A stretch of 46,714 bases of DNA from a virus (lineage: Duplodnaviria > Heunggongvirae > Uroviricota > Caudoviricetes). The notes below the pieces were generated by a model, which was not told the origin of the DNA, did no database searches, and worked only from the letters and a program-made list of their open reading frames with translations. Each line of letters begins with the position of its first letter. Within the stretch, counting starts at the first letter, position 1. The DNA lies in the IMG/VR virus record IMGVR_UViG_2671180847_000008. One strand, written 5' to 3'. Shown one piece after another: positions 1,071-45,410 of the stretch. Made by a program: the position numbers and the translations under genes.

Positions 1071-1180
1071 ATGCACGGTAATTCTGAAATGCAAAAAATC
1101 AACCAAACCAGCGCAATGCCTGAAAAAACTGACGTTCACTGGAGTGGTCGGTTTAGCGTTGCACCAATGCTCGATAGGAT
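1071..1180 (+). repeat. attL region: displaced native dusA 5' end (encodes MHGNSEMQKINQTSAMPEKTDVHWSGRFSVAPMLD, then diverges into phage DNA)
   Basis: About 80% identical direct repeat of 45301-45410 (the start of intact dusA); reading frame breaks after the shared ATGCTCGA (1167-1174). Confidence 0.8.
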
Positions 1181-1318
1181 GTACCGTTCTTGAAAAACAA
1201 GTAGTTATACACTTTGTGGGAGCCTATTGGGAACCCGGCGTTTTCATTTCAAGGTGTAATCCATACGCGGCTTAAGAATGAGATATAATGCGACTTTTAG
1301 TGTTCCGCTTGAGAGGCC

Positions 1319-1861
1319 ATGATGCTTACCCTGGACGAGATAGGTCAATCAGTACGTAACAATATCCAGTTGATTATTGATCATGTCGGCTTACCTCTTG
1401 CTGTTGGTCCGCTCAGTGATGATGATTACAAGATTCTGTGTGGTGGCTATGGTGAGCTTGAATGGGACTATGCGTTAAGTACCTATGGCAACTCCAGAGA
1501 AAAGTATGAGTTCTGCATAAAACTTGTTCAGCAAGGTCGGGTTCAGGGAATACCATCAGGAGCAGCAATTTGTGTTTATGGGGTTGAAGAAAACATCTTT
1601 CGTATCCATATGATCGAAAGGTTTTCTAGAGAAGATGAATCTCACCCATTGAAAGGGCGCATGGTTTTACTCACTCTTATGAGTGCTTTTATATTTTGTA
1701 AAGCTGTTGAATGTAAAGTTGTCCACATTGTAGAGCCAGTACCAGAACTGGTGCAGTATTACGAGTCTTTTGGTTTCCGCATGGAACAGTGCGGTTATGT
1801 GATGTCGGCAGTCATTGATGAGCTGCAGGATATCTTTCTTAAATTTGCTCAGAAGGTATAG
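1319..1861 (+). CDS. Prophage cargo protein of unknown function, possibly GNAT-like acetyltransferase fold (start may be the second ATG at 1322)
   Basis: 180-aa ORF; RBS GAGAGG before tandem ATGs; perfect TATAAT at 1284-1289; AT-rich; C-terminal pattern GRMVLL...LVQYYESFGF loosely resembles GNAT motifs A/B. Confidence 0.6.
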   Translation: MMLTLDEIGQSVRNNIQLIIDHVGLPLAVGPLSDDDYKILCGGYGELEWDYALSTYGNSREKYEFCIKLVQQGRVQGIPSGAAICVYGVEENIFRIHMIERFSREDESHPLKGRMVLLTLMSAFIFCKAVECKVVHIVEPVPELVQYYESFGFRMEQCGYVMSAVIDELQDIFLKFAQKV

Positions 1862-1960
1862 ACGAGAAGGGTCTACAAATTGTAGGATACCCGTCCAGAT
1901 TACCTTAAAGGTACATCTATGGCAGTCGTTTTGTGCTTAAACTACTAAGAAACGATGTCA

Positions 1961-1981
1961 CCAATCGACATGATCGATTGG
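1961..1981. promoter_or_regulatory. Palindrome CCAATCGA-N5-TCGATTGG upstream of the 57-aa ORF; candidate operator
   Basis: Perfect 8-bp inverted arms with a 5-bp spacer, about 70 bp upstream of the ATG at 2052. Confidence 0.35.
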
Positions 1982-2051
1982 CATAAGTTAGCGAAACAAG
2001 CTAGCTTTAAAGAAAGGGTTAGAGACGCCTTTACTGTCTCGGGAGTTTTCT

Positions 2052-2225
2052 ATGAAAGATCAAAAAGCAACCAAGCCACAGGTTAAGTTCGACACAATGA
2101 AAGCATTCGCAGGTATGGGTGCTGCTGTTGAAGTTCTGATGAAGGCTGCTCCTAATGCGTTCACTCACGCTACTGTCTCTGGTAAAGAGCAGCAGGGTAA
2201 GCTTCGTCGTCGCAAAGCAGCATGA
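2052..2225 (+). CDS. Small basic protein, 57 aa, unknown function (below the ORF-track length cutoff)
   Basis: ATG with RBS GGGAG 6 nt upstream; ends just before a strong terminator; translation MKDQKATKPQVKFDTMKAFAGMGAAVEVLMKAAPNAFTHATVSGKEQQGKLRRRKAA. Confidence 0.55.
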   Translation: MKDQKATKPQVKFDTMKAFAGMGAAVEVLMKAAPNAFTHATVSGKEQQGKLRRRKAA

Positions 2226-2244
2226 TCATAGCTGGTGCTTTTTG

Positions 2245-2272
2245 AAAACCCGCCTTCAGGCGGGTTTTTTCT
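2245..2272. terminator. Bidirectional rho-independent terminator
   Basis: CCCGCC-TTCA-GGCGGG hairpin flanked by an A-tract on one side and six T on the other; lies between convergent genes. Confidence 0.8.
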
Positions 2273-2554
2273 TTAGTGATGTTCTTTGCCCTTCTGTTTG
2301 ACTGTTCTGACCTGTTCCCACTCGATACGTCCTTCTTCTCGCCTTTTGTCTATGTATTCCGCAAGATCCTGAATATTGATGCAACGTTTTGCTTTTTGTG
2401 ATGTGCCGATGCGATATGTTGGAACGGGCAACTTACAAGCGTTTGCTTTTGCTTCTGCCGTGGCTGGACTCATGCCAAAGTACTTTTGGCTAACTGCTGA
2501 GAGTTCAATGTTTGGGGTATTGAATTCAGCCATCAGTAAAAACAAGGTGTTCAT
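2273..2554 (-). CDS. Excisionase-like DNA-binding protein (PrtN/AlpA-type); start chosen at MNTLFLL
   Basis: ATG at 2554 with RBS GGAG 7 nt upstream; small basic protein; last gene of the leftward operon next to attL. Confidence 0.6.
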   Translation of the reverse strand: MNTLFLLMAEFNTPNIELSAVSQKYFGMSPATAEAKANACKLPVPTYRIGTSQKAKRCINIQDLAEYIDKRREEGRIEWEQVRTVKQKGKEHH

Positions 2555-2590
2555 AATTTTCTCCATCAAAACCGGCTGCACCCGGGAAAA

Positions 2591-3163
2591 TCATAATTCT
2601 GTGCTGGTGGCAGGAATTAATTTCTGCCAGATAGCGGAAACATATTTTGCCTGATGACGGGCATCAGCCAGGGCGTTGTGCCGTTCGCCATCGAAAGGCA
2701 TGTCCATTTTGGGGTCGAATCCGATGGAACGCCCAAGCGTAACGATCGTGCGTACATCGTGGTCATTCCAGTACGCCCACGGGCAGATTTGTCCTGCTCG
2801 CTCATAAGCTCCACGTAAAATTACGTTGTCGAAGGTGGCCCCGTTACCCCAGACTTTTAAATATTTCGTATTGTCTGCGTGCCGGTTAATGAAATGGTTT
2901 AGTTCTGAGAGAGCATCGCTGATCGACAAAGTATCATCAATACAGATTGCAGCTCGCGCTTCAGGGCTTTGTTTCAACCACCACAGGATGGTATCGCCGT
3001 CAGGTGTAGCTCCTTGCTTCATAGCACTGTCCAGGCTGACAACCGCATAAAATTCTTGTCCGATGTCTCCGGTTTCTGGAGTGAAGAACACCGCGCCAAT
3101 GGAAACGATCGGTGCATCCTTATTTTTCCCCATCGTCTCAAGGTCGATCATTAAGTTGTTCAT
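2591..3163 (-). CDS. DnaQ-like 3'-5' exonuclease
   Basis: Start MNNLMIDLETMG with RBS GGAGG; DLET and HNAL-D motifs of DEDDh exonucleases; start overlaps the upstream stop (TGATG). Confidence 0.8.
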   Translation of the reverse strand: MNNLMIDLETMGKNKDAPIVSIGAVFFTPETGDIGQEFYAVVSLDSAMKQGATPDGDTILWWLKQSPEARAAICIDDTLSISDALSELNHFINRHADNTKYLKVWGNGATFDNVILRGAYERAGQICPWAYWNDHDVRTIVTLGRSIGFDPKMDMPFDGERHNALADARHQAKYVSAIWQKLIPATSTEL

Positions 3164-3885
3164 CACTTCACCTCCTGCGGCGGTTCCGGTAGCGGCATCC
3201 AATTGATTACATCGCATTCAGGGATGCTGATATCATCACCAAGCCATCCTTGACCTTCAGACCAGCATTGCACGTAATACCCGTATTCTGTGTTCACTAC
3301 GCACCACTGCCCGTCATCCGGCATTCGCTCACTACAGCTTATCCAACTATCCGGAGTTACCGGAGAGTTGCCATTTACATCGAAGTTTGGCTCTGCGTCC
3401 TGAACCAGGAGGATGTAACCATTCTTGGCAGTATCAAGTTCTAACGCCTCGGTGACGGTGCCGAAATAGCGATTACCTAAATCAGCATCACAAGTGCTTA
3501 CATCAATGGAAACTTCCATGCCTTCGATTAATTCTGGCAAGTTGTAAGTTTGGTTTACAGGTTGGCCTCCCTGAAGCATGGCGGCGCGGTGACACCAGAT
3601 AATCCAGCCAAGCGCCATATCCCATGCCATGTATTCTCTATCACCATTTTTTGCCCTGCGGCGATCTACAGATTCCCCGAAACGCTTCTCCATAAATAAT
3701 TCATAGGCTGCCCGTTCATCCGATACTGCTGCCAGCGATGCCAGTGCAATTTTAAATGCGGTAAGTATGTTGTTAACCACACCTATTTCGAATGCTATTT
3801 CACTACATACAAACGATTTATCGTCTATTATCGACTCAATTCCGGTAATCGTGTTCTGTAACCATTCTTTGGTAAGAGTATTCAT
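3163..3885 (-). CDS. Early-left hypothetical protein with DUF551-like C-terminus
   Basis: 240-aa ORF; RBS AAGGTG; C-terminal W-rich motif DGQWCVV...WMPLPEPP. Confidence 0.7.
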   Translation of the reverse strand: MNTLTKEWLQNTITGIESIIDDKSFVCSEIAFEIGVVNNILTAFKIALASLAAVSDERAAYELFMEKRFGESVDRRRAKNGDREYMAWDMALGWIIWCHRAAMLQGGQPVNQTYNLPELIEGMEVSIDVSTCDADLGNRYFGTVTEALELDTAKNGYILLVQDAEPNFDVNGNSPVTPDSWISCSERMPDDGQWCVVNTEYGYYVQCWSEGQGWLGDDISIPECDVINWMPLPEPPQEVK

Positions 3886-3887
3886 AA

Positions 3888-4079
3888 CTATTTCACCTTA
3901 ATCTCAACATTTCGCAGCTTTAGCTCTACTGGCAGGTCTGACTTTCCGGTTAATGCTAATGCGAGATTTTCTGGAGTAATGAGAGCAGTTATTGTTTTCC
4001 CCCTCGCCAGACGAATAATCATTCGTATTTCGCGATCGTCACATGCTCCTGGTCGAACAATTGATATTTGTCCGTTCAC
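3888..4079 (-). CDS. Small hypothetical protein (63 aa)
   Basis: GTG start with RBS AAGGAG 7 nt upstream; tightly packed in the operon. Confidence 0.5.
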   Translation of the reverse strand: MNGQISIVRPGACDDREIRMIIRLARGKTITALITPENLALALTGKSDLPVELKLRNVEIKVK

Positions 4080-4080
4080 C

Positions 4081-4644
4081 TCACTCTCCTTTGATGCGAA
4101 TGCCAGCGTCAGACATCATATGCAGATACTCAACTGCATCCTGAACCCATTGACCGCCAATCCCGTAATAGCGATGCGTAATGATGTCGATAGTTACTAA
4201 CGGGTCTTGTTCGATTAACTTCCGCAGAAACTCTTCCAGGTCACCAGTGCAGTGCTTGATGACAGGAGTTTTCCCAGGATGGCGAACAACAAGAAACTGA
4301 TTTCCGACTTCACGGACTTCGTTGCTTTCCAGTTCTGCAATGCGCTTCTCTGCGGCTTCCAGCTCAACTCTCAGCTTCCCAACAGTAAGAGCAATATCCT
4401 CGTTCTCCTGATCGCGGCGTTTTATGTATTGCTGGTTTCTTTCCCGTTCATCCAGCAGCGCCAGCACGGTTTCTGGTCCGATCAGAAATTTGAAGGCGTT
4501 GAGCGCATCAATATCCACACCGTAATCTTTAAGTTCCTGTTCACTTAACAAATCATCATCAGCTGGCAACATTAACAGGCGTTCCATTGCTGGAATTGCA
4601 CGTTCCGCCGCCTCACGCAGTGCCTGGTAATTAATTTCGCTCAC
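4081..4644 (-). CDS. Ea22-like early protein (coiled-coil)
   Basis: GTG start with RBS AAGGAGG; N-terminus VSEINYQALREAAERA typical of the ead/Ea22 family; GTGA overlap with the upstream gene. Confidence 0.7.
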   Translation of the reverse strand: MSEINYQALREAAERAIPAMERLLMLPADDDLLSEQELKDYGVDIDALNAFKFLIGPETVLALLDERERNQQYIKRRDQENEDIALTVGKLRVELEAAEKRIAELESNEVREVGNQFLVVRHPGKTPVIKHCTGDLEEFLRKLIEQDPLVTIDIITHRYYGIGGQWVQDAVEYLHMMSDAGIRIKGE

Positions 4645-4880
4645 TGGTTGCCTCCTTTGCGGATCTGCGCTGCGATGCACGAAAAAAAAGACTCTCGCGT
4701 ATGACTGTTAAGAGCTGGCGCGAACGCCGCGCTAAGAACGGCAGCATCACAGCCGTCATCGATATAGAGCGCAATTTTTTTCTCCAGGCGTGCTTTAGCT
4801 TCCTGCAACTGCATACCCCGGCACGCACGCGGGATATACTCAGCAATTTGAGCGATAGATTTTTCGTTCTGTTTAAACAT
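4641..4880 (-). CDS. Small hypothetical early protein (79 aa)
   Basis: ATG with RBS GAGGTG; stop overlaps the Ea22-like start (translational coupling). Confidence 0.55.
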   Translation of the reverse strand: MFKQNEKSIAQIAEYIPRACRGMQLQEAKARLEKKIALYIDDGCDAAVLSAAFAPALNSHTRESFFSCIAAQIRKGGNQ

Positions 4881-5076
4881 GCTTCACCTCGATAGGCTTG
4901 ATGGTATCGATCAGCAGTCGGCGGCGAGTATTTTCTGCAAAGTGGCGGCGTCCGGTTTCTTTGTGGTAAAACTCGTTTTTTCCGACGACCCACATCCGCT
5001 TTGTCTGGTGCAGTTTTTTTACCTGCGGACCGTCTCGGGTGATAACAATTCCTGTATGAGTTTTTATCACGCTCAT
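4873..5076 (-). CDS. Small hypothetical early protein (67 aa)
   Basis: ATG start; ATGA-type overlaps with both neighbours. Confidence 0.5.
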   Translation of the reverse strand: MSVIKTHTGIVITRDGPQVKKLHQTKRMWVVGKNEFYHKETGRRHFAENTRRRLLIDTIKPIEVKHV

Positions 5077-5435
5077 TTCTTATTCTCCGGTGCTTTTGGC
5101 ATTACTGCCCAGTGAGTGATATTGACGTTTTCAAGGTCCCCGACCTGAAATGTCCACTGCCATTCTCCGGTTTCTTTTTGTCCCCAGGTGTACCAGAGAG
5201 AACGCCAGCCAATCAGCCAGCCTTCTCCGTTAGCATCAAATAACAGAACACTTTCATTTGCTGGCGGCAGTTCAGCTGACACTGGCATTATTTTGTTTTC
5301 CAGTGCCGCACATTTAGCTTCAAGCGCATCGAATTTACGTACCAGGTACTCAGCATTTGTTTCATTCACTTTCAGATCTCGCGGTACACATTTCCCGCGA
5401 AGAAACCCTTCCATTTCGAAAACATTCATGCGCAT
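5073..5435 (-). CDS. Small DUF551-like protein
   Basis: 120-aa ORF; C-terminal W-rich motif ITHWAVMPKAPE. Confidence 0.6.
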   Translation of the reverse strand: MRMNVFEMEGFLRGKCVPRDLKVNETNAEYLVRKFDALEAKCAALENKIMPVSAELPPANESVLLFDANGEGWLIGWRSLWYTWGQKETGEWQWTFQVGDLENVNITHWAVMPKAPENKK

Positions 5436-5962
5436 TTGCGTAACTCCGATAACTCGTTAAAACGTTCCATAAACATCCCGTAGGCATGGCCCGGTGCCAG
5501 TGGAACCACGTTGAACATCTCTGTTGCCGGGATGCCTTCCAGTACAGGCCAGAAAGAGCCATCATCAAGCCCGAGATCGCGGCGTTCGGTTGCCAGCATG
5601 ATGAGATCGGCATATTTCACAGGCGTGCTCATAACCGGGGGTAACCCGTATTTCTCACGGATTACGGCATCTATTTTTTCTTCCATCCGTTTATAGTCAG
5701 GAAGAAGGCGTTTCAGTGGAGCGGGGATGTCCTGGCAATATGCTTCTGTTGCATCATGCATTAACGCTTCAAAAGCAAATTCCTGCGGTACCAGCTGGCT
5801 GCAAAGCACCGCATGCTGGGCGACGCTGTAGAAGTGTGAAAGATGTCCTGCAAAGCGACAGATATTTGAAAGGGAAACTGCGATATCGTTAATCACGATG
5901 TCGTCTTTATTTATCTTGTCATAATAAAAATGCTTCCCGGAAAAAGTTTTAATAAATGACAT
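5426..5962 (-). CDS. HD-domain phosphohydrolase (YfdR-like 5'-deoxynucleotidase family)
   Basis: Start MSFIKTF with RBS GGAG; H...HD metal-binding motifs (AQHAVLCS, ALMHDATE). Confidence 0.75.
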   Translation of the reverse strand: MSFIKTFSGKHFYYDKINKDDIVINDIAVSLSNICRFAGHLSHFYSVAQHAVLCSQLVPQEFAFEALMHDATEAYCQDIPAPLKRLLPDYKRMEEKIDAVIREKYGLPPVMSTPVKYADLIMLATERRDLGLDDGSFWPVLEGIPATEMFNVVPLAPGHAYGMFMERFNELSELRKCA

Positions 5963-6090
5963 TTCGTTCTCCACTTTATATGCGCTGCACAGCGCTGAAT
6001 TCTGCTAAAAGGAAGCTCTCACCATCCGGTGATTATTGAGTTAATTACGTTTCCATAAATGCCCCCGCAGGGGCATTTGCAGTAATGAAA

Positions 6091-6915
6091 TCAGGCGGTG
6101 AAAGTACCAATAAAGGTTTCTACTTTGCTGTCTTTGAATTTCTCAACAAGCAGATCACGAAATTCGTTAGCCATTTCTTCCTGCATCGCTTCCAGCTGAA
6201 TAATGCGCAGAACCAGTACAGGACGATCGCCAGTGATAATGCTGAGGCGTAATTTAAACGGACGTTCTTTCAGACCTTCAAACGGAACGCATTTAAATTC
6301 AAATGCCACTGGCATAATGTCTTTGGTCTTCGCTTCGACAGACTCCATCAGGGAGCGTTTGCCGCTGAAGTCATTATCTTCAAAATCAGCGGTCTGGTTT
6401 GCTTCAATCGTGATTTTACGGACTGCCGCAGCCGCTTTTGTTGCCTGAATAGCGTCACCATTGGCATCAAAGCCCACAAGGTAGTCGGCCCAGTCTTCAA
6501 TCCATTCTGCCAGTGACTTCTGGGAGTTACGCTCGCCGTTAACAGACAACAGGGCAGAGAACGGTGCTGTCTTTTTCAGTTTGAGAGTGGCGGTGTTATC
6601 TGCGTGACCTGGTTCATCAATAGTACCCAGGTTAAGCACACTGACGGCTCGCATATTATCGGCATCGATAAAGCAGCGGGTGCCTTCATCTGCAAGATCT
6701 TTAGAATAACGGGTAAAGTCATCGATGCTGGCAGTGGAAAGCGCACCACGGAAACGGAAGCGATTTAAATTAAATTTTTCCAGATCATGAATGCGGAAAT
6801 TCTCAGGCAATGCCACAGCATCGGCACCAATATTACTGATAATTTCATTAACACCCTGAGCAGAAATAAGGGCATGGATTTGATTAATTGCGGTTGCGTC
6901 TAAGTTCTGAGACAT
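6091..6915 (-). CDS. YfdQ-like protein (DUF2303)
   Basis: 274-aa ORF; ATG with RBS GAGGA; family recalled from the CPS-53 prophage early region. Confidence 0.7.
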
Positions 6916-6980
6916 AATAAGTCCTCACTATATAAAGATATTCAGTGATGAGATAAATAATCAGTTTATTAAGAACGATA

Positions 6981-7343
6981 TTAACGACCTGCTGCGCGGA
7001 GTTTTCCGTCAGGCTCACCGGCAAGAGTCAGTAATTGTCCCTGGTCTTCCTGCAGAATAGTCAGGCGACCACCGCGATTGACATACATCGGCGTTTCGGT
7101 GGTGTCTTCTTCGGAAATTTTCCCGCGGTTAGTCGGACGAACATATGAGAGTTTGTGTTTTATTTTCACACGGTTCTCATCAAACGGTTCGATTTCCAGG
7201 TTGAGCGAGACCTTACCTTTGGTTTTCGTGTTCATCACACCGGAAGCGACTTCACTGAGAACTGCGCCGATTTTGGTTTCAAATACGCCGCCGTCCAGCT
7301 CCCCGATAAATTCCTGCACGTTGGTACTGCGTTCGCTAGCCAT
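6981..7343 (-). CDS. YfdP-like early protein; start at MASERSTNV
   Basis: ATG at 7343 with RBS AGGAG 7 nt upstream; the 77 codons of track ORF upstream of this start are R/S/C-rich and look non-coding. Confidence 0.65.
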   Translation of the reverse strand: MASERSTNVQEFIGELDGGVFETKIGAVLSEVASGVMNTKTKGKVSLNLEIEPFDENRVKIKHKLSYVRPTNRGKISEEDTTETPMYVNRGGRLTILQEDQGQLLTLAGEPDGKLRAAGR

Positions 7344-7950
7344 TTTGCTGCTCCTCATCATATCGACCCTGCAAGGTCGGTTGGTTTCTCCACAAAACAG
7401 AGAAGAACACCTGCGGTGACTGCCGCCCGGATGGATTGGGTTATGAGCCCGTCGTCCGGTGATGCTCTTCTCTGTTTTGTAAAAAGAGCGGTACCAGCCG
7501 GAAGCAAGTGTACAAACTGGTACCGCCAAAGCAGTGGCTGTTGTGGTGGGGTTGTCACTCAGGCGTATGGTCAACCTGACAATCCGGTGTCCTCAACGGG
7601 GAAAGAGTAACCCCGCCATACTTACCGCCGCGCCATTTCGCGGATTACCACAACGCTGAGAGCACTTAGCCAGTTACGGCACCACACTTTGTCGCGGTTC
7701 CATAAATGCCCTCATCGTTGCACCCTGGTCTCTTCCCAGGCGTCAAACCGGATCGCCGCGCTGGTTAGGCGTCTTATCAGCATCATCATTGACTTGCACA
7801 TTCCGGCTACCTGGTTTGTTTGCCCGAGCAGGAGTGGATTGTCCCCTTTAACGTCCCCAGACCGCTAACGACGCATGTGCCATACGCCGTGTTACAACCA
7901 AATTTTGTTAGTACCTTGTTTGTAGGTCTGGAAAGAAAGATAAAATGAAG

Positions 7951-7989
7951 TTGCGCATTATGCAAGTGTTTTTATTGCGAGATATGCAA
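7951..7989. promoter_or_regulatory. Candidate OL/pL: two 15-bp operator-like sites
   Basis: TTGCGCATTATGCAA (7951-7965) and TTGCGAGATATGCAA (7975-7989) share the TTGC-N7-GCAA pattern with the site in the cI-cro intergenic region; they overlap a possible leftward promoter. Confidence 0.45.
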
Positions 7990-8000
7990 TTTGGTGGGTA

Positions 8001-8023
8001 ATGAAAAGCCACCTTCTGGTGGC
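8001..8023 (-). terminator. Terminator of the repressor transcript
   Basis: GCCACC-TTCT-GGTGGC hairpin followed on the minus strand by TTTTCAT, just past the repressor stop. Confidence 0.6.
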
Positions 8024-8045
8024 TAATTGATGTTGAGGTAGGAGG

Positions 8046-8738
8046 TTAATTGTGTCGCTTAAGGGTTTGTGACTGACTGATTAAGACCTTTCCAAAGACC
8101 ATAAACCGGTGTTCGTTTTCGCTGGTAATTCCCCATTCGCGGTAAATCTGATTATCAGAAATTACCAGCAGTTTATCAGGTATCATTTGCAGTCGTTTGA
8201 CGTAAATTTTATCATCAAAACCAAATACATATATACCATCCCCATCAAACTGATTGATACTGATATCAACGAAGATGAGATCTCCTGGCTCAATGGTTGG
8301 ACACATACTGTCCCCACGAACGTTGATAACTTTAATGTGATTTGCTGGTCGTCCACCAAACATCGATACAGCATTATCAGTTCTGTATTCAATGGCATGA
8401 ATCACATCAATGACATCACCGCCCTGGATAAGGCCATTTCCCGCACTGGCACTGACATCCAGCATTTCAATACGGAATACATCCTTCACCTGCGCAACAT
8501 CCTCACTAATACTGTTTTTACATACAGTATTACTTTTGAAGTCTGAGGTAAAGAGATCAGCAATATCAACACCTAAGCTCCTGGCAATATTACTCAGGGC
8601 TTGTTCAGTGAATTGTTTCTGCTTACCTGTTTCCAGGCGTGAGATATTCGCCGCATCCACTCCTATTGCTTCAGCGAGATCGGCGATTTTCATGTTCTTC
8701 GCCTGGCGAAGTTGTCTGACTCGATTTCCTATGTTCAT
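8046..8738 (-). CDS. cI: CI-like prophage repressor (HTH plus S24/LexA-like peptidase domain)
   Basis: N-terminal HTH (KIADLAEAIGVDAANISRLETG); C-terminal GDSM Ser and VKRL Lys autocleavage motifs; ATG with almost no leader, as for lambda cI. Confidence 0.9.
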   Translation of the reverse strand: MNIGNRVRQLRQAKNMKIADLAEAIGVDAANISRLETGKQKQFTEQALSNIARSLGVDIADLFTSDFKSNTVCKNSISEDVAQVKDVFRIEMLDVSASAGNGLIQGGDVIDVIHAIEYRTDNAVSMFGGRPANHIKVINVRGDSMCPTIEPGDLIFVDISINQFDGDGIYVFGFDDKIYVKRLQMIPDKLLVISDNQIYREWGITSENEHRFMVFGKVLISQSQTLKRHN

Positions 8739-8744
8739 GCGTTT

Positions 8745-8821
8745 ATTACATTTCTTTATTGCGCGTTAAGCAAATCAACTTGCGCAAAATATTTGCGTGA
8801 AATAATATGCTCATCACGCAA
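8745..8821. promoter_or_regulatory. Divergent immunity promoters with operator-like repeats (candidate pRM/pR/OR)
   Basis: Rightward TTGCGC-N17-TAATAT (8780-8808) ahead of cro; leftward TTGCTT-N17-TGTAAT (8773-8745) ahead of cI; TTGCGCGTTAAGCAA (8759-8773) plus inverted TTGCGTGA...TCACGCAA (8793-8821). Confidence 0.55.
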
Positions 8822-8835
8822 TATGTGGAGGTCAT

Positions 8836-9096
8836 ATGCAATCACCATTACGGAATGTGCGTAAGGCGCACGGATTTACTTTGCAGCATGTTGCTGCGGG
8901 CGTTCAGGTCAATCCAGCGACGCTGAGTCGTATTGAAAGACTGGAACAAATTCCATCTATCGATCTTGCAGAACGTCTGGCCAATTTTTTTAAGGGTGAA
9001 ATCAGCGAAATGCAGATTCTTTATCCGGCACGTTTTCAATCTAGCCAAAACCAGAATGGGTTTAAACCACAGGAACAGGAGGTAAGCCGTGGGTAA
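8836..9096 (+). CDS. cro: Cro-like HTH repressor
   Basis: ATG with RBS GGAGG; HTH FTLQHVAAGVQVNPATLSRIE; divergent from cI. Confidence 0.85.
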   Translation: MQSPLRNVRKAHGFTLQHVAAGVQVNPATLSRIERLEQIPSIDLAERLANFFKGEISEMQILYPARFQSSQNQNGFKPQEQEVSRG

Positions 9097-9640: not shown

Positions 9641-9785
9641 ACAGTTTAACGGCAAATAACCGTTTGTCGCAACAGCTGGTGGTCAGTGTCGCTGAACACC
9701 TGTTGTTACGGCATGAATGCAGATTACCAAATCACCTGGCTGTAAGTAACCACAGAGAACTTTACCTGACTGTGGGGGGCGAGTT

Positions 9786-9965: not shown

Positions 9966-10050
9966 TTCTGCCATTCCGGGACGTTACACTGTTCAGGCAC
10001 CTTATAAAACGGGTGCCGGGCGTGGAAACCCGGAATTCACCAAAGCGCAC

Positions 10051-11824: not shown

Positions 11825-11826
11825 TC

Positions 11827-17041: not shown

Positions 17042-18094
17042 ATGAAAAATACTGTAAAAATAAACAGTGTTGATTTAATCAACGCTGATTGCCTGCATTT
17101 TATTCAGTCCCTGCCTGATGATTCCATTGACCTGATTGTTACCGATCCGCCGTACTTCAAGGTGAAACCCAACGGCTGGGACAATCAGTGGAAAGGGGAC
17201 GAAGATTACCTTAAGTGGCTGGACCACTGTCTGGCCCAGTTCTGGCGGGTGTTAAAACCTGCCGGAAGCCTTTACCTGTTCTGTGGGCATCGCCTGGCAT
17301 CTGATATTGAGATCATGATGCGCGAACGTTTCAACGTGCTTAACCATATCATCTGGGCGAAGCCGTCCGGACGTTGGAATGGGTGTAATAAAGAAAGTCT
17401 GCGCGCATATTTTCCTGCCACAGAGCGCGTTCTGTTTGCTGAACATTACCAGGGGCCATATCGCGGCAAAAGTGACGGCTATGCGGCAAAAGAAAGGGAA
17501 CTCAAACAGCACATAATGGCACCGCTGATATCGTATTTCAGGGATGCTCGTGCCGCACTGGGTATAACGGCAAAACAAATTGCCGAAGCCACAGGTAAGA
17601 AAAATATGGTTTCCCACTGGTTTGGTGCCAGTCAGTGGCAGTTGCCGAATGAGGCTGACTATCGGAAGTTACAGGCACTGTTTTCCCGTATAGCGGCAGA
17701 GAAGTTTCAGGAACAACAACTGGAACAACCACACCACCAGCTGGTGGCATCTTATGATTCACTGAATCGTAAATATTCTGAATTGCTGGATGAGTTTAAA
17801 TCTCTCCGGCGTTATTTCTCCGTATCAGTCTCCGTGCCTTATACCGATGTCTGGATGCATAAACCCGTTCAGTTCTACCCGGGTAAACATCCGTGTGAGA
17901 AACCGGCGGATATGCTCAGGCAAATAATCAATGCCAGTAGTCGACCTGGTGATCTGGTTGCTGATTTTTTTATGGGATCCGGTTCCACAATAAAAGCAGC
18001 AATGGCGCTGGGGCGTCGGGCCTTAGGTGTTGAGCTTGAGTCAGAGCGGTTTAACCAGACAGTGAAAGAGATAAACGAGCTGGTGGGGAAATAA
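17042..18094 (+). CDS. Orphan DNA methyltransferase (N6-adenine or N4-cytosine class)
   Basis: DPPY motif (VTDPPYF) and AdoMet-binding FxGxG (FFMGSGST); no adjacent endonuclease gene. Confidence 0.85.
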
Positions 18095-20409: not shown

Positions 20410-20578
20410 AAAAAGGCTAGTTTTTGCATTTTTATCGGCCACCATCATCTTTGCATCTTATTGATTATTAATGGTTATTTGTTTTTTGTATGTCGAATTG
20501 AGCGGTTTTTGTTCGACATCGAACGCGTTTTCTTAAAGTTGTTCGCACGATGCATGTTTAAAGCTCTCCGGAGGAAAT

Positions 20579-35436: not shown

Positions 35437-35452
35437 TGAAAAACGTTTATGT

Positions 35453-35476: not shown

Positions 35477-35495
35477 CGTTTATGGAGCGTGAGGA

Positions 35496-38400: not shown

Positions 38401-38993
38401 GCGGTAATCCTCCGGTATTTTCCCTGACACCGGACGGGCGGCTGACGGCGAAAAATGCCGATATCAGCGGTAACGTGAATGCGAACGCCGGGACGCTCAA
38501 CAATGTCACGGTAAATGAAAACTGTACGATTAAGGGCATGCTGGAGGCGACTCAGGTCAGAGGTGACTTCGTTAAAGCTGTATCCAAATCATTTCCGAAA
38601 CAGGCTGGTACGTGGGGTAACACGGAAACACCAAACGGGACGGTTACAGTCACCATCAGCGATGATCATAACTTTGACCGTCAAATCATTATTCCGCCCA
38701 TTATCTTTAACGGAATAGCGTATAGCGATCCGGGAAGTGGTAATAACCCGGGAGGTACAAGATACACGGGTTATGGTTTTGAAGTTCGCAAAAACGGTGT
38801 ATTAATCGCATCCAGAGAAACTAAAGGGGCCATTCCCGGTAGCTACAGTGCGGTTATTGATATGCCGAGTGGCAGGGGAAGCGTCACTCTGGAGTTTAAG
38901 GTTTTCCATAAAGGCAATCAGTGGGCAGGTAATATCACCGACTGTACGGTGATTGTGACCAAAAAAGCTGCTTCCGGCATCAGTATTCGTTGA
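35496..38993 (+). CDS. J: Host-specificity / central tail fibre protein J
   Basis: 1165 aa; extensive similarity to lambda gpJ through most of its length as recalled. Confidence 0.95.
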
Positions 38994-39013
38994 AGTTGTT
39001 ATAACCCATATAA

Positions 39014-39039
39014 GGGCACCAGAAATGGTGCCTTTTTTA
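39014..39039 (+). terminator. Terminator after J
   Basis: GGCACC-AGAAAT-GGTGCC followed by TTTTTT. Confidence 0.8.
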
Positions 39040-39062
39040 TTGCAGAAAAGCGAGAGGTAATT

Positions 39063-39662
39063 ATGCGTAAACTTTATGCCGCCATTTTGTCCGCAGCCAT
39101 TTGTCTGGCCGTATCCGGTGCGCCTGCATGGGCATCTGAACATCAGTCCACGCTGAGCGCGGGGTATCTTCATGCCCGGACCAACGTTCCCGGCAGCGAT
39201 GATCTGAACGGGATTAACGTGAAATACCGTTATGAGTTTACGGACACACTGGGGCTGGTGACGTCATTCAGCTATGCAGGAGACAAGAATCGCCAGCTTA
39301 CCCGTTACAGCGATACCCGCTGGCATGAAGATTCCGTTCGTAACCGCTGGTTCAGCGTAATGGCGGGGCCGTCTGTGCGCGTGAATGAATGGTTCAGCGC
39401 GTATGCGATGGCGGGTGTGGCTTACAGCCGTGTGTCGACTTTCTCCGGGGATTATCTCCGCGTAACTGACAACAAGGGGAAAACGCACGACGTGCTGACC
39501 GGAAGTGATGACGGTCGCCACAGCAACACGTCTCTGGCGTGGGGGGCTGGCGTGCAGTTTAACCCGACCGAATCCGTGGCCATTGATATTGCTTATGAAG
39601 GCTCCGGCAGTGGCGACTGGCGCACTGACGGTTTCATCGTGGGTGTCGGTTATAAGTTCTGA
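39063..39662 (+). CDS. lom: Lom outer-membrane protein (Ail/OmpX family)
   Basis: Signal peptide; C-terminal [25 protein letters not shown] matches lambda Lom as recalled; RBS GAGAGG. Confidence 0.9.
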
Positions 39663-39688
39663 TTAGCCAGGTAACACAGTGTTATGAC

Positions 39689-39716
39689 AGCCCGCCGGTT
39701 CAGGCGGGCTTTTTTG
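39689..39716 (+). terminator. Terminator after lom
   Basis: AGCCCGCC-GGTTCA-GGCGGGCT followed by TTTTT. Confidence 0.85.
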
Positions 39717-39726
39717 TGGGGTGAAT

Positions 39727-42700
39727 ATGGCAGTAAAGATTTCAGGTGTACTGAAAGACGGCGCAGGTAAACCGGTACAGAACTGCACAATCCAGCTGAA
39801 AGCAAAACGTAACAGCACCACGGTGGTGGCGAACACGGTGGCCTCAGAAAATCCGGATGAAGCCGGGCGTTACAGCATGGACGTTGAGTACGGTCAGTAC
39901 AGCGTTATTCTGTTGGTGGAAGGCTTCCCGCCATCGCATGCCGGGACCATCACCGTGTATGAAGACTCACAACCGGGTACGCTGAATGATTTTCTCGGTG
40001 CCATGACGGAGGATGATGTCCGTCCGGAGGCACTGCGCCGCTTTGAACTGATGGTGGAAGAGGTGGCGCGTAACGCGTCCGCAGTGGCGCAGAACACAGC
40101 AGCCGCGAAGAAGTCAGCCAGCGATGCCAGCACATCAGCCCGTGAGGCGGCAACCCATGCGACTGATGCTGCAGGCTCAGCACGTGCAGCCAGCACGTCA
40201 GCCGGACAGGCCGCTTCGTCGGCTCAGTCAGCGTCTTCCAGCGCAGGAACGGCATCAACAAAGGCTACTGAAGCATCAAAAAGTGCTGCCGCTGCAGAGT
40301 CTTCAAAAAGCGCGGCAGCCACCAGTGCCGGTGCAGCGAAAACGTCAGAAACGAATGCCGCAGCATCACAAAAATCTGCGGCCACTTCTGCATCCACCGC
40401 GACCACGAAAGCGTCAGAAGCTGCCACCTCAGCCCGGGATGCGTCGGCTTCAAAAGTGGCGGCAAAATCATCAGAAACGAGCGCAGCCTCGAGCGCCGGC
40501 AGTGCAGCTTCCTCGGCAACGGCGGCAGGAAATTCCGCGAAGGCCGCAAAAACGTCTGAGACGAATGCGGATAACAGCGCACAGGCGGCAGCAGACTCAC
40601 AAACTGCATCGGCAAACTCCGCGACAGCAGCCAAAAAATCAGAAACCAACGCGAAAAATAGTGAGGCAGCAGCAAAGGTCAGCGAAACCAACGCTAAAGC
40701 GTCAGAGAACAAGGCGAAAGAATATCTCGACAAGGTCGGGGGACTCGTCAGCCCGATGACGCAATACGATTGGCCTGTTGTTACTGCTAGTGAGTCTCTT
40801 TACATCAAGATCGCGAAACTTTCCGATCCTGGAGCCAGCAGAAGTCATGTAACGCTAATGGTTACTAACGCTGGTAACTACGGCTCCCCTTACGGAAACA
40901 TTGACTTTATCGAGATCTCGGCGCGCGGTCTGCCTTCTTTGCTTAGTGCGGATAATGTTTCTCGTCATCTGAGTATACGCCGCTTAGGGTCAACCGGGCT
41001 GACCGATAACAACCAGATGCGTTACGGCCTGGTTAAAGGTGACGGCTTTATTGAGGTTTGGGCATTCCAGGGTGCGTTTATTAACGACGCAAAGGTTGCG
41101 GTGCTGGCGCAGACAACACTAAACACAGAATTATACATTCCAGACGGATTTGTTAAGCAAACCGCCGCGCCTTCTGGATATATTGAAGGCAACGTTGTAA
41201 GGATTTACGACCAGGTAAACAAGCCGACTAAAGCAGATTTGGGTCTTTCTAATGCTATGCTTACAGGCGCTTTCGGTCTTGGCGGTAGCGGGATATCAAC
41301 AAACGGCAAGATGAGCGATGTAGAGATCTTAAAAGCTCTGCGTGACAAAGGTGGTCATTTCTGGCGCGGTGATAAGCCGACCGGAAGCACGGCGACCATT
41401 TATAGCCACGGTTCTGGTATATTCTCGCGGTGCGGCGATACGTGGTCAGCGATCAATATCGACTACTCAACCGCGAAGATTAAGATCTATGCCGGCAACG
41501 ATGCCCGGCTTAACAACGGGACTTTTAGCGTCAATGAGCTATACGGCTCGGCAAACAAGCCGTCGAAATCGGATGTTGGACTTGGCAACGTAACGAACGA
41601 TGCGCAGGTAAAAAAAACCGGTGATACAATGACCGGTGACTTGACAATCAAAAAAGGTACACCGTCAGTCTTCCTGCGGGCAGACAGTGGAGTCACCGCT
41701 TTGCGGTTTTATACTGGCGATAACACAGAGCGCGGCATAATCTATGCTGGTCCTAACACTGATTCGCTTGGCGAAGTTCGCATCAGGGCAAAGACAGCAG
41801 GGGGGACATCAGGAGGGGATCTTGTTGTTCGTCACGACGGGAGGGTTGAAGTCCGTGATCTCACAGTAGCGTATAAAATTAAAAGCAGAACGATTGAGAT
41901 TGCAAATACCGACACTGACTCATCGGCAACTACGCTAAGCATCTATGGAGTACAGCACACGCCGTTGGTTTTAACGCGTTCTGGTTCTTCTGAAAATGTG
42001 TCCATTGGGTTTAAGTTAGACAACGTGAACCCAAAGTATCTTGGAATTGATACTAATGGGGATCTGGCTTTTGGTGAGAGTCCTGATCAGAAACAAAACA
42101 GCAAATTGATCACGCAAGCGAAACTCGACAAGGGATTAACGATTGGTGGTCAACTGGCTTTCAAAGGTACGACAGCGTTTTCAGCCGTTGCTACGTTCAG
42201 TGCCGGGATAGCAGGAGCCATCGAGCCGGAAAACATTGACGGCCAGACGGTTAATCTTAACAACCTGACCATCATCAAGTCAGATGCCGGGGCAGTTAAA
42301 TACTATATTTGTCCATCCTCTGCAGGTGGTGCAAATATCACCAACAAGCCTGACGGCGTAACAGGTAACTTTTTGCTCCGTGTTGAATCGACTCGTAAGG
42401 TTAGGGATTCAGATTATGCGAACATACAAACGCTGATTAACAGCGACACAAAACGTATATACGTTCGCTTTGTTGTTAATGGAAACTGGACAGCGTGGAG
42501 TCAGGTTGTTGTTTCCGGATGGAATCAGGATGTAACCGTCAGGTCGTTAACCTCGACGACTCCATCAAAATTAGGTGGCGGGCGGATTGATGTGCTTGGA
42601 AGTACGTCAGATTATGGCAGCATGAATTGTACCGTTCGTGGTGTTGATAGCACTGGAACCAATTCGGCGTGGTCGGTAGGCACATCAGAAAGCACAGGCA

Positions 42701-43506
42701 AAAAGTTGTTCCTGAAAAACCACAGAAGCAGCGCTCAAGTGCTGTTAAATGGCGATGATGGAGCGGTTCAACTACTAAGTGGCACTGTTAACGGTGCTAC
42801 AGCGCAGGCGCTAACCATCAACAAAGATGAGGTTAACTCAACTGCCGATTTAGTAATTAGAAAACAAACAGGGACTGGCAATCGTTTTGCTTTACTTAAT
42901 TCAGGTAATTCAGAACTGCCAGTTAGCATCGCGGTCTGGGGGTCAAGTGATCGACAAAACGTTTTTGAGGTTGCAACGTCTGCTGCGTATCTGTTTTATG
43001 CGCAAAGAACACCAGCAGGCCAGTTGTTTGATGTAAATGGCGCTATTAATTGCACAACGCTGAATCAGTCATCAGACCGCGACCTTAAAGACGATATTCG
43101 CGTTATCAGCGACGCGACGAAAGCAATCCGCAAAATGAACGGTTACACCTACACGCTCAAGGAAAACGGCCTGCCTTATGCTGGCGTTATTGCACAGGAA
43201 GTAATGGAGGCGATACCAGAAGCTGTGGGATCGTTTACTCATTATGGTGAAGAGTTGCAAGGTCCGACCGTTGACGGCAACAAGCTACGCGAAGAAACGC
43301 GCTATCTTAATGTTGACTACGCCGCCGTGACGGGTTTACTTGTTCAGGTCGCCCGTGAAACAGATGATCGCGTTACCGCGCTGGAAGAGGAAAATACAAC
43401 GTTACGTGAAAATCTGGCAACAGCAGGCACCCGGATCACCACTCTGGAAAATCAGGTAAGCGAACTGGTTGCACTTGTCCGGCAGTTAACAGGAAGCGAA
43501 CATTGA
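39727..43506 (+). CDS. stf: Side tail fibre protein with lambda-Stf-like N-terminus and C-terminal intramolecular chaperone domain
   Basis: N-terminus MAVKISGVLKDGAGKPVQNCTIQLKAKRNSTTVV as in lambda Stf; Ala/Ser-rich repeats (40080-40740); C-terminal region NGYTYTLKENGLPYAGVIAQEV plus coiled coil resembles the peptidase-S74 self-cleaving chaperone. Confidence 0.85.
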   Translation: MAVKISGVLKDGAGKPVQNCTIQLKAKRNSTTVVANTVASENPDEAGRYSMDVEYGQYSVILLVEGFPPSHAGTITVYEDSQPGTLNDFLGAMTEDDVRPEALRRFELMVEEVARNASAVAQNTAAAKKSASDASTSAREAATHATDAAGSARAASTSAGQAASSAQSASSSAGTASTKATEASKSAAAAESSKSAAATSAGAAKTSETNAAASQKSAATSASTATTKASEAATSARDASASKVAAKSSETSAASSAGSAASSATAAGNSAKAAKTSETNADNSAQAAADSQTASANSATAAKKSETNAKNSEAAAKVSETNAKASENKAKEYLDKVGGLVSPMTQYDWPVVTASESLYIKIAKLSDPGASRSHVTLMVTNAGNYGSPYGNIDFIEISARGLPSLLSADNVSRHLSIRRLGSTGLTDNNQMRYGLVKGDGFIEVWAFQGAFINDAKVAVLAQTTLNTELYIPDGFVKQTAAPSGYIEGNVVRIYDQVNKPTKADLGLSNAMLTGAFGLGGSGISTNGKMSDVEILKALRDKGGHFWRGDKPTGSTATIYSHGSGIFSRCGDTWSAINIDYSTAKIKIYAGNDARLNNGTFSVNELYGSANKPSKSDVGLGNVTNDAQVKKTGDTMTGDLTIKKGTPSVFLRADSGVTALRFYTGDNTERGIIYAGPNTDSLGEVRIRAKTAGGTSGGDLVVRHDGRVEVRDLTVAYKIKSRTIEIANTDTDSSATTLSIYGVQHTPLVLTRSGSSENVSIGFKLDNVNPKYLGIDTNGDLAFGESPDQKQNSKLITQAKLDKGLTIGGQLAFKGTTAFSAVATFSAGIAGAIEPENIDGQTVNLNNLTIIKSDAGAVKYYICPSSAGGANITNKPDGVTGNFLLRVESTRKVRDSDYANIQTLINSDTKRIYVRFVVNGNWTAWSQVVVSGWNQDVTVRSLTSTTPSKLGGGRIDVLGSTSDYGSMNCTVRGVDSTGTNSAWSVGTSESTGKKLFLKNHRSSAQVLLNGDDGAVQLLSGTVNGATAQALTINKDEVNSTADLVIRKQTGTGNRFALLNSGNSELPVSIAVWGSSDRQNVFEVATSAAYLFYAQRTPAGQLFDVNGAINCTTLNQSSDRDLKDDIRVISDATKAIRKMNGYTYTLKENGLPYAGVIAQEVMEAIPEAVGSFTHYGEELQGPTVDGNKLREETRYLNVDYAAVTGLLVQVARETDDRVTALEEENTTLRENLATAGTRITTLENQVSELVALVRQLTGSEH

Positions 43507-43689
43507 TATCTTTCAAGACCTGAAGGAGGCTGTTCCTGGTACGTTCTGACTGTTGTTGATCTGGAAATTGCAACGGAGGAAGAGAAATCGTTACTGGCCG
43601 CATGGAAGACATATCGGGTGTTGTTGAATCGTGTTGATACATCAACTGCACCTGATATTGAGTGGCCGGAAGAACCAGACACAATGTAA
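43507..43689 (+). pseudogene. 3' remnant of a tail-fibre assembly (tfa) gene
   Basis: No start codon; the last ~45 codons ([42 protein letters not shown]) resemble Tfa C-termini; in frame directly after the stf stop. Confidence 0.55.
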
Positions 43690-43691
43690 GC

Positions 43692-43737
43692 GAAAAAGAA
43701 AAACCGCAGACACGACGTATGCAGGACGTGCTGCGGT
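43692..43737 (-). terminator. Terminator of the dinI-like gene
   Basis: ACCGCAG...CTGCGGT hairpin followed on the minus strand by TTTTTCTTTTT. Confidence 0.65.
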
Positions 43738-43804
43738 TGGCTGGTGAACTTTCGATAGTGCGAGTATTGAATGATTTCCAGCCGTTACCGATTTTACGTG
43801 TTTA

Positions 43805-44053
43805 TTAGTGAACAAACCACTCGTCAGCAGACTCCCAGGTATCTTTCAGAGTCTCCTGAACAAATGTTTTTGCAGAATCTTTATCTGCGGTGCGTGTAAC
43901 AGAAAGCCCATCGTTGCTGGTGGCTTTTACGATCACCTCTACATCGTCATAACGTTTACTGATGCGTCGGGTTAATTCTTCCTTTAACGCATCCACAGCA
44001 CCGTTTGGCATTTTAGTTATTTTTTCTTTGGCTATGCAGATCTCAATACGCAT
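43805..44053 (-). CDS. dinI: DinI-like DNA-damage-inducible protein
   Basis: 82 aa; [11 protein letters not shown]...[16 protein letters not shown] resembles the DinI family; LexA boxes in its promoter. Confidence 0.85.
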
Positions 44054-44066
44054 AAAAGTCCCTCTA

Positions 44067-44114
44067 TACTGTGTTTGTATACAGTATTATTTTTAACTGT
44101 ATGGATAAACAGTG
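44067..44114. promoter_or_regulatory. Two tandem LexA (SOS) boxes in the dinI-like promoter
   Basis: taCTGTgtttgtatACAGta (44067-44086) and aaCTGTatggataaACAGtg (44095-44114); both fit CTGT-N8-ACAG exactly. Confidence 0.85.
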
Positions 44115-45212
44115 TCAAGAGGTCTTATTTCTGCTCCTTTGGAGCTCTTCAAAACGATTATGTAAAGATTTCGGATACAGTTCGGTATATACCTGCCATA
44201 GCACGTTTAATGAACGATGCCCTGTAACCTGAGCGACTTCCTCAATACTAAAACCAGCCTCAAATAAGCGACTTGCCCCTTCTCTACGCAAATCATGGTA
44301 TCGCAGATCTTTAATACCTAATTTGCTTCTTACCCTCTGAAATCCTGCAGTAACAGAAGTGCTGTTATATGGAAAAATGAATTCCGATTTTTTGGGCTGT
44401 CGTTGGACGATATCCCAGGCTTCCCCAAGCAAGGCTACTTTCATGTGGTTGCCTTCCTTTTTGCGTGGATCTTTCCTGTCTCTTACGAGTATAGATTTTT
44501 GTTCCTGGTCGAGATCTTCCCATCGTAACCGGCATACTTCTCCGATCCGCATACAGGACCACACAGAAAATTTGAGGATATCAACGAACGGAATTTTTGA
44601 GCATTTATGAGTAGATCGTTGTTGAAGGCCTTCAATGAGCATGTCCAGTTCATCAGATGCTGGTCTACGATTACGACGGTTTGATTTACCAATCAAACCA
44701 AGTTTAAGTAGATATGGGCGAGCGCTTTTCGCCGGGTTTGATGTGTAATTAATTCCGTATACAGGTTTGGCCGCATCCAGAACACTGCCAAGATAACTAA
44801 CATCGTGGCTGACTGTTGCTGGACCTGCACCAGCGTTGTTTCTTAGCCTGCAATGTTCAATTACGTCATTTTCTGTCAGTTCAGATAGTTTGATCGCGGA
44901 GATGTCACTATCCATAAGCAGTTCCAGCACATATCTTTTAGTACGGCCTGCTTTACCTCCGGCATTTGGGTCATTTAAATATTTGTGTAGTAAGTCACGG
45001 ACTGTAAGTCCGTCAACTGCATTTGATGATGGAATGCCATATAGATCTAATTCCATCACTTTCTGTGTTCCCCATGTTTTGGCATGAGCATGTTTAGGGA
45101 ATGTTTTGCTTTCCCTGTAAGTGATAACACCTTTTTCTTTGATAATCACATTACAGCGATAGCGTGGTGTGCCATCGGATTTTAGTCGTTTCTCTATGTT
45201 ATAGTACGCCAT
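44115..45212 (-). CDS. int: Tyrosine integrase (dusA-targeting type)
   Basis: C-terminal catalytic region with HDLRREGASRLFEAG and VTGHRSLNVLWQVYTELY (His-x-x-Arg, Tyr nucleophile); adjacent to the attachment site in dusA. Confidence 0.9.
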   Translation of the reverse strand: MAYYNIEKRLKSDGTPRYRCNVIIKEKGVITYRESKTFPKHAHAKTWGTQKVMELDLYGIPSSNAVDGLTVRDLLHKYLNDPNAGGKAGRTKRYVLELLMDSDISAIKLSELTENDVIEHCRLRNNAGAGPATVSHDVSYLGSVLDAAKPVYGINYTSNPAKSARPYLLKLGLIGKSNRRNRRPASDELDMLIEGLQQRSTHKCSKIPFVDILKFSVWSCMRIGEVCRLRWEDLDQEQKSILVRDRKDPRKKEGNHMKVALLGEAWDIVQRQPKKSEFIFPYNSTSVTAGFQRVRSKLGIKDLRYHDLRREGASRLFEAGFSIEEVAQVTGHRSLNVLWQVYTELYPKSLHNRFEELQRSRNKTS

Positions 45213-45231
45213 TACACGACCTCGTTATTTC

Positions 45232-45267
45232 GGGTTCCCAGAAAACGTGGGAACCTGTGCGGGAACC
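45232..45267. repeat. GGGAACC repeats between int and the att core (candidate arm-type sites)
   Basis: GGGTTCCC (45232-45239), GGGAACC (45249-45255), GGGAACC (45261-45267); a further GGGAACCC at 1229-1236 lies on the phage side of attL. Confidence 0.4.
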
Positions 45268-45300
45268 TAACGCGAGAAAAATAGCCTGAAATGTTCAAAA

Positions 45301-45410
45301 ATGCACGATAATCCTGAAACACAGAAAACTAATCAAACCAGCGTGATGCCTGAAAAAACTGGCGCTTACTGGAGTTCTCGGTTTAGCATTGCTCCTATGC
45401 TCGACTGGAC
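45301..45410 (+). repeat. attR region: prophage-supplied replacement 5' end of dusA
   Basis: About 80% identical to 1071-1180; encodes a diverged N-terminus ([35 protein letters not shown]) fused in frame to the rest of dusA. Confidence 0.8.

Follow-up and report, generated by a model that had tools for sequence, protein, structure and literature searches.

The 46,714-nt stretch of DNA analysed here (IMG/VR virus record IMGVR_UViG_2671180847_000008, called the window below) runs from yjbM (DUF2713) into pspG, which is the neighbourhood of dusA, a tRNA-modification gene, in Escherichia coli K-12, and carries a prophage inserted in dusA itself. The element is almost certainly a temperate lambdoid phage of the mEp460 group that was integrated by an enzyme of the dusA-associated integrase (DAI) family, with the start of the gene restored in frame by phage DNA. 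A prophage in dusA with a replacement start is an already known and well-documented system. An earlier note on this DNA, made from the letters alone, had proposed integration into dusA with the element spanning 1071-45410; the site stands, and the limits are slightly narrower, with the prophage proper at 1175-45404 (44,230 bp).

Junctions and attachment core

The features at the two ends of the prophage are listed below.

1068-1174, + strand: resident K-12-type dusA 5' arm on the host side of attL, identical to prophage-free K-12 until 1174.
1071-1193, + strand: truncated open reading frame (ORF) of 35 dusA codons, 5 phage codons and a stop.
1167-1174, + strand: core ATGCTCGA on the attL side; no other stretch is identical in all four att sites.
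1175-1235, + strand: phage P' arm of attP, ending in GTGGGAGCCTATTGGGAACC (1216-1235); sharing with other elements stops at 1235.
45298-45404, + strand: phage-borne dusA' arm, with the core ATGCTCGA at attR (45397-45404); contiguous with the P' arm in mEp460.
45301-46338, + strand: chimeric dusA, 345 aa, phage part up to the core and host part from 45405.

A repeat search of the window returned a single outstanding direct repeat, at 1068-1184 and 45298-45414 (117 nt, 81% identical, spacing 44230), and blastn aligned the same pair with 83% identity over 107 nt (1068-1174 against 45298-45404, E = 3e-28). This agrees with the two copies of the dusA start, about 110 bp long and about 80% identical, which the earlier note had seen flanking the element. 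The left copy is translated as MHGNSEMQKINQTSAMPEKTDVHWSGRFSVAPMLD, followed by RMYRS and a stop. The right copy, which had been described as diverged, fused in frame to the rest of dusA and adjacent to the integrase, indeed starts the intact 345-aa ORF, with a Pfam Dus domain at residues 30-340, and the integrase gene, directly upstream and divergent to dusA, ends 88 nt from its ATG at 45301. The phage-borne arm comprises this ATG, 34 codons and two bases of codon 35. Over the 35-codon stretch the two copies have 19 nt differences, corresponding to 10 non-synonymous and 5 synonymous codon changes.

Comparison with the empty site shows which of the two is resident. The left flank matches prophage-free E. 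coli genomes exactly up to base 1174, with no match beyond it. In a three-way alignment with K-12, attL follows K-12 until ATGCTCGA (1167-1174), and attR follows K-12 from ATGCTCGA (45397-45404) onward, the 96 nt before it diverging from K-12 at many positions. The left copy was thus resident before this integration, as had been claimed when it was called the native N-terminus, and the right copy is of foreign origin as far as the core. The insertion point falls within dusA codons 33-35. A four-way alignment was then made of attP of the free phage mEp460, attB of prophage-free K-12, and attL and attR of the window; ATGCTCGA is the sole stretch identical in all of them and is the maximal common core, at the place where the earlier note had put the crossover. 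Strand exchange within it would involve a probable overlap of 7 bp, TGCTCGA, at 1168-1174. The attP core is centred in a perfect dyad, TCCTAT-GCTCG-ATAGGA (read off the four-way alignment), an arrangement that would fit two inverted core-type sites flanking this overlap.

The reciprocal product of the proposed reaction also exists. A synthetic attP, built by joining 44700-45404 to 1175-1900 (joint 45404/1175), aligns to free phage mEp460 in one piece, with 99.1% identity over all 1431 nt. Because this reconstructed attP is contiguous in the virion-derived mEp460 genome, the right arm is phage DNA, which bears out the phage origin that had been proposed for the replacement start. The reciprocal attP is present in virion-derived phage genomes, and the intact attB in other strains. 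A second predicted junction was obtained by joining the dusA start of strain ST1193, which is short and lacks the yjbM flank, to the phage P' arm. This junction is present in one piece, at 98-99.5% identity, in 20 complete genomes, and the same core is therefore used in both host types. In the lysogen E. coli Q5, which has a short host dusA start, the attL core reads ATGCTTGA in place of ATGCTCGA, a one-base variant inside the presumed overlap.

Two other ways of reading the repeat were considered. Before any comparison either copy might have been the resident one, as both encode a plausible N-terminus, so the right-hand start could in principle be native and the left copy brought by the phage. 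Such a reversed orientation is practically excluded by the exact match of the left copy, until 1174, to prophage-free K-12 and thousands of other genomes, and by the right copy, which differs from the K-12 attB at 19 coding positions and is contiguous with phage DNA in mEp460. Equally negligible is the idea that the repeat is a local duplication, a gene-conversion tract or an assembly artefact lying beside an unrelated prophage: nothing beyond the existence of the repeat speaks for it, while the same int-dusA junction is found in 733 of 5426 complete E. coli genomes and the same left junction in 331, the reciprocal product occurs as attP in phage genomes, and the breakpoints coincide to the base with the core.

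Integrase, proposed mechanism and candidate arm-type sites

The recombination genes and the region between integrase and dusA are as follows.

44115-45212, - strand: dusA-associated tyrosine integrase, 365 aa, Pfam Phage_integrase at residues 189-346 (E = 1e-20).
45213-45300, no strand assigned: int-dusA' intergenic region (P arm), with candidate arm-type sites GGGTTCCC at 45232-45239 and GGGAACCT at 45249-45256 and 45261-45268.
2273-2581, - strand: PrtN-family recombination directionality factor (RdfN-type excisionase), Pfam PyocinActivator (E = 4e-23), PHROG excisionase; located across attP from int.

Alignment of the integrase to XerA (5hxy) places the catalytic residues at R222, H306, R309, H332 and Y342. 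The protein is 99% identical over 365 aa to the integrase of mEp460, which is named among the BLASTP hits in the study describing the DAI family (PMC4482086); it is through this protein that the integrase is assigned to the family, and the match to the dusA-specific class suggested earlier is supported. Its matches in NCBIfam and the PDB are weak and Xer-type, and the NCBIfam search gave no family-specific name. The mEp460 integrase carries the depositor's note 'INT_Rci cd00796', and the closest characterised relative of the DAI family is the shufflon recombinase Rci (PMC4482086).

In the mechanism proposed here, the integrase recombined the phage attP with the chromosomal site in dusA codons 33-35, at the core ATGCTCGA. 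The P arm of attP, beside int, contains a homologue of the dusA start (ATG and 34 codons) that is 81-83% identical to the resident one. Integration thereby shifted the resident start and its promoter to attL, where the start became a 40-codon dead end, and at attR the phage-borne start was fused in frame to the remaining dusA. The encoded DusA has its full length of 345 aa, and the RFS(V/I)APMLD beta-strand is preserved in it. For excision, the integrase would act with the PrtN-family factor encoded at 2273-2581.

The P' arm is common to other dusA elements and phages (including SKA5 and Lys8385Vzw) exactly up to 1235, after which they diverge. Its end, GTGGGAGCCTATTGGGAACC (1216-1235), repeats a motif present three times in the int-dusA' spacer and forms a 21-nt repeat with the P arm. 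The clustering of GGGAACC, with four of the five sites in the window falling in attP, and the conservation of the spacer motifs in Kosakonia and Phytobacter elements, whose integrases are 82-83% identical, suggest that these repeats are candidate arm-type integrase sites. Weighing against this is the total number of GGGAACC in the window, which is at chance level (5 found, 4.95 expected).

Comparison with known systems

According to Farrugia 2015 (PMC4482086), DAI elements insert in the 5' end of dusA, swap it for their own sequence and are flanked by semi-conserved repeats of ~21 bp; ~64% of them carry prtN and about half are prophages. The window resembles them in its integrase, divergent to and directly upstream of dusA, in the insertion point within the dusA 5' end, in the semi-conserved, dusA-derived direct repeats at both ends, in its replacement 5' end and in its prtN homologue. 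It differs in the length of the repeat, which is ~110 bp at 81-83% identity as opposed to ~21 bp. In hosts with the short dusA start, the repeat similarity shrinks to ~25 nt.

The phage phi1720a-02 (PhiStx2dact) integrates ~100 bp into dusA of C. rodentium with a 7-base core and an in-frame PhidusA', and its attP circles are regenerated in vivo (PMC6328086). The integrase end of our synthetic attP is 97.7% identical to phi1720a-02 (KF030445) at the nucleotide level, and the core stands in the same GCTCC-ATGCTCGA-CTGGA context and matches the C. rodentium attB (PMC6328086). Unlike the prophage of the window, phi1720a-02 carries stx2 and has a host of a different species. Its PhidusA' ORF is also longer (184 bp, PMC6328086), whereas in the window an upstream stop limits the phage part to 35 codons.

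A distant relative, the SGI1-like IMEVchUSA3 of V. cholerae (Durand 2021), supplies dusA, which stays expressed, with an N-terminus and with a promoter shown by a lacZ fusion, and requires RdfN, a PrtN homologue, for excision (PMC8409611); it is the one dusA element for which a replacement promoter has experimental proof. Judging by the published description, the window shares with it the element-supplied dusA start and the PrtN/RdfN-type factor; however, IMEVchUSA3 is a mobilizable island and not a phage, with excision under the control of the IncC-plasmid regulator AcaCD (PMC8409611). A close counterpart is mEp460 (NC_019716), with attP and integrase 99% identical and the same lambdoid architecture. 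It differs by mosaic changes in early-region and cargo genes, and by its form, the window copy being integrated and mEp460 having been sequenced as a linear, cos-ended genome.

The principle of rebuilding the target is not limited to dusA. Phage 21 and e14 integrate in icd and carry in attP a copy of the gene end that keeps icd intact; there it is the 3' end that is replaced, so no promoter is needed. The attP of SXT likewise carries a copy of the end of its target, prfC, which stays intact (cited in PMC8409611). Both systems differ from the window in integrase family and target gene. The yjbM/dusA locus is a listed insertion site of Shiga toxin (Stx) phages, and the dusA 5' end is known from earlier work as a hotspot where prophages, Stx phages included, and islands insert.

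Translation and expression of the chimeric dusA

Comparison of element-type arms from several genera gives an indication of whether the fused gene is used. Nine of 10 such arms preserve both start codon (ATG) and reading frame, and all of them preserve the RFS(V/I)AP strand; as these are conserved across the elements, translation of element-borne arms is likely under selection. The activity of the chimeric DusA is putative. The earlier note had held that the prophage restores dusA with its own promoter and first ~35 codons. The codons are indeed those of the phage; the promoter is putative, proposed by analogy, and we place presumed divergent promoters in the 88-nt int-dusA' spacer. Two by-eye candidates, TGAAAT at 45287-45292 and GATAAT at 45307-45312, were rejected, being without a -35 element.

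Several points weigh against a working phage-supplied start and favour the alternative that dusA is effectively inactive in the lysogen, the in-frame fusion being untranscribed or its protein non-functional. A consensus scan of 43700-45500 gave no sigma-70-like site on the + strand of the 88-nt spacer (45213-45300), no obvious Shine-Dalgarno sequence was seen by eye before 45301, and the phage-supplied N-terminus departs from the resident one at 10 of 35 residues. Moreover, dusA is dispensable. We nevertheless give this alternative a small probability: the conservation of start, frame and strand in the element-type arms argues for selection on translation, and integration of IMEVchUSA3 leaves dusA expressed, at a lower level (PMC8409611). 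The arrangement is also of use for annotation, in that the 105-nt 'incomplete tRNA-dihydrouridine synthase' pseudogene which RefSeq places at attL is the displaced start, and the dusA beside int is the chimera.

Origin of the resident dusA start

That the left copy is resident does not make it ancestral. Comparison of dusA across 80 Enterobacteriaceae species showed that most have a shorter start which, ahead of the RFS motif, is unrelated to that of K-12; E. albertii, E. whittamii and Escherichia sp. E1V33 are among them. In those three Escherichia, zur lies directly beside dusA and yjbLM are absent, and in other Enterobacteriaceae genera, mostly with the short start, zur or a TraF_2 gene is close by. 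E. coli itself contains both forms: among the 5426 complete genomes, zur lies beside a short dusA start in 1043 (~19%; ST1193, ST95 and PMV-1 are examples), and the yjbM flank is found in 4380 (~81%). The sequences of K-12 and ST1193 hardly differ on the right side of ATGCTCGA but are unrelated on the left side, the breakpoint being at the att core. Base composition also differs. The K-12 segment from ~70 nt past zur to the core has 27-41% GC against 50-60% on either side, and in the window the GC fraction is 0.364 over positions 1-1067 and 0.546 in the dusA body. This AT-rich, yjbM-bearing segment is absent where zur adjoins dusA, as in the ancestral-type Escherichia.

The K-12-like start is moreover associated with mobile elements. 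It was found at 10 loci, all with extra DNA, and in five of them a homologous integrase (64-99% identity) lies directly upstream; two further K-12-like loci, in Silvania and K. pseudosacchari, hold significant remnants of the integrase start region. Weak support comes from Kosakonia oryziphila, where the start is K-12-like and 465 additional nt are present, with no detectable integrase trace. The K-12 arm is identical at 84/99 to the arm of a Kosakonia element and at 82/99 to that of mEp460, against a background of ~55/99. The N-terminus supplied by the Vibrio element has the same length as that of K-12 and is 61% identical to it (PMC8409611).

Taken together, these observations suggest that the resident K-12-type start (the promoter region and the first 34 codons), along with the AT-rich yjbL/yjbM, is probably a domesticated attR-side remnant of an ancient element that integrated in dusA. 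The left copy, native with respect to the present phage, would then itself be element-derived. It follows as a likely corollary that the integrase and attL of the older element were lost, and that the ancestral Escherichia state was zur beside a 331-aa dusA. There is likewise a good chance that the dusA 5' end was replaced twice in succession, by related elements, and that the window records both events. An older element at this site would also account for the length of the repeat, ~110 bp rather than ~21 bp, because the resident start itself resembles an element arm. Full-text literature searches returned no paper stating an element origin of the K-12-type dusA start.

Several results weigh against a domesticated remnant. 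Neither an attL fossil nor an ancestral dusA start was found between zur and yjbL in K-12, where spacer homology ends ~70 nt past zur. A search for an integrase remnant in K-12 by blastx gave no match; a trace at window positions 977-998, compared with the region of the integrase start codon, is not significant (z = 2.3-2.6), although it recurs against several elements. A scan of viral contigs and of the GenBank phage collection found no intact donor element. As a source of yjbM, the viral contigs contained only prophage predictions overrunning into the host flank, and the GenBank phage collection contained no phage with yjbM; of window positions 1-1174, only 1068-1174 matches phages there.

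The opposite history, in which the K-12-type start is ancestral in E. coli, the phage arm is a copy taken up from a host of that type and the short start (~19%) arose later, is unlikely but carries some weight. The K-12-type form is the majority one, K-12 has neither the attL fossil nor a statistically significant integrase remnant, and element-borne arms must ultimately stem from the dusA of some host. It would have to be reconciled, however, with the short start of E. albertii, E. whittamii, Escherichia sp. E1V33 and most other Enterobacteriaceae genera, and with a K-12/ST1193 similarity that breaks, together with the 27-41% GC segment, at the core. It would also leave aside the extra DNA at all ten K-12-like loci, with an integrase at five and remnants at two, the position of the K-12 arm within the diversity of element-borne arms, and the identical length of the Vibrio element N-terminus. 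These points favour the domesticated remnant. If this holds, target-rebuilding integrative elements can permanently overwrite the promoter and N-terminus of a housekeeping gene, and E. coli would be dimorphic for DusA, with forms of 345 aa and 331 aa that differ in promoter. Studies of the biochemistry and regulation of K-12 DusA would then concern the overwritten form, with a mobile-element-derived N-terminus and promoter.

Some variation was also seen around the site. According to the annotation, yjbL and yjbM are one frameshifted DUF2713 pseudogene in K-12 and strain 219, and an intact 338-aa gene in K71-77. The identity of the yjbM flank across E. coli drops to 90-93%. In several short-start species (9 loci) the conserved TraF_2 gene and the dusA core are 650-1750 nt apart, where ~140 nt is usual; such long spacers may represent further insertions or fossils at this site.

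Prophage body and other genes

The remaining features of the window are listed here.

1-708, + strand: yjbM (DUF2713), host flank, Pfam DUF2713 (E = 1.5e-167).
1175-45404, no strand assigned: mEp460-like lambdoid prophage, with nucleotide matches to mEp460, PhiR55_1, PhiR40_1 and Ayreon.
1319-2269, + strand: two-gene cargo cassette with terminator, in the variable slot between attL and rdfN (PHROG 4350 and 2741).
43805-44094, - strand: dinI-like gene (43805-44053, Pfam DinI) and LexA-box-like palindrome (44067-44086, LexA-box pattern).

The two halves of the prophage are covered to 75-91% at 95-98% identity by mEp460, PhiR55_1, PhiR40_1 and Ayreon; mEp460 covers them to 75% at 98.2% and to 89% at 96.2%, and PhiR55_1 to 86% and 82%. 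Genes matched to these phages include those for terminase, portal, head protease, tape measure, J, side tail fibre, O, Q and Rha, and the prophage has a full complement of structural and regulatory genes. Placed against mEp460, whose record is linear, it has its cos ends near 20553/20554.

The cargo cassette consists of ORFs of 180 aa (1319-1861) and 57 aa (2052-2225), followed by an intrinsic terminator at 2244-2269. A Pfam search gave no match for either ORF, and some homologues of the 180-aa one are labelled GNAT-like or N-acetyltransferase by their sources. The pair travels as a cassette, being found between the Q antiterminator and lysis genes in Citrobacter(-type) and Edwardsiella prophages. 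In E. coli K71-77, the slot equivalent to window positions 1236-2272 (extracted locus 3336-4660) holds a Panacea-domain protein and a hypothetical protein. The slot between the P' arm and rdfN is a variable cargo site. We also considered whether a conserved integration module puts the two cargo ORFs (180 aa and 57 aa) under the host dusA promoter displaced to attL. As a general feature this was rejected; the cassette sits between Q and lysis genes elsewhere, the K71-77 slot holds Panacea-domain cargo, and in the window the cassette comes with a perfect TATAAT (1284-1289).

LexA-box-like palindromes (TACTGT-N8-ACAGTA, at most one mismatch) occur three times in the window, at 8510-8529, 17050-17069 and 44067-44086, where 0.04 would be expected. 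The last of these overlaps the predicted promoter of the dinI-like gene, and that at 17050-17069 lies at the start codon of a DNA methylase gene (17042-18094). The palindrome at 8510-8529 falls within the ORF of the cI-like repressor (8046-8738), where a linker joins the helix-turn-helix and S24 peptidase domains; flanks included, it has 25 of 29 nt in common with the one at 44067-44086. Within the side tail fibre gene (39721-43506), a 29-nt motif occurs four times at 40333-40655, with spacings of 126 and 84 nt, and its copies are probably a repeated structural module of the fibre.

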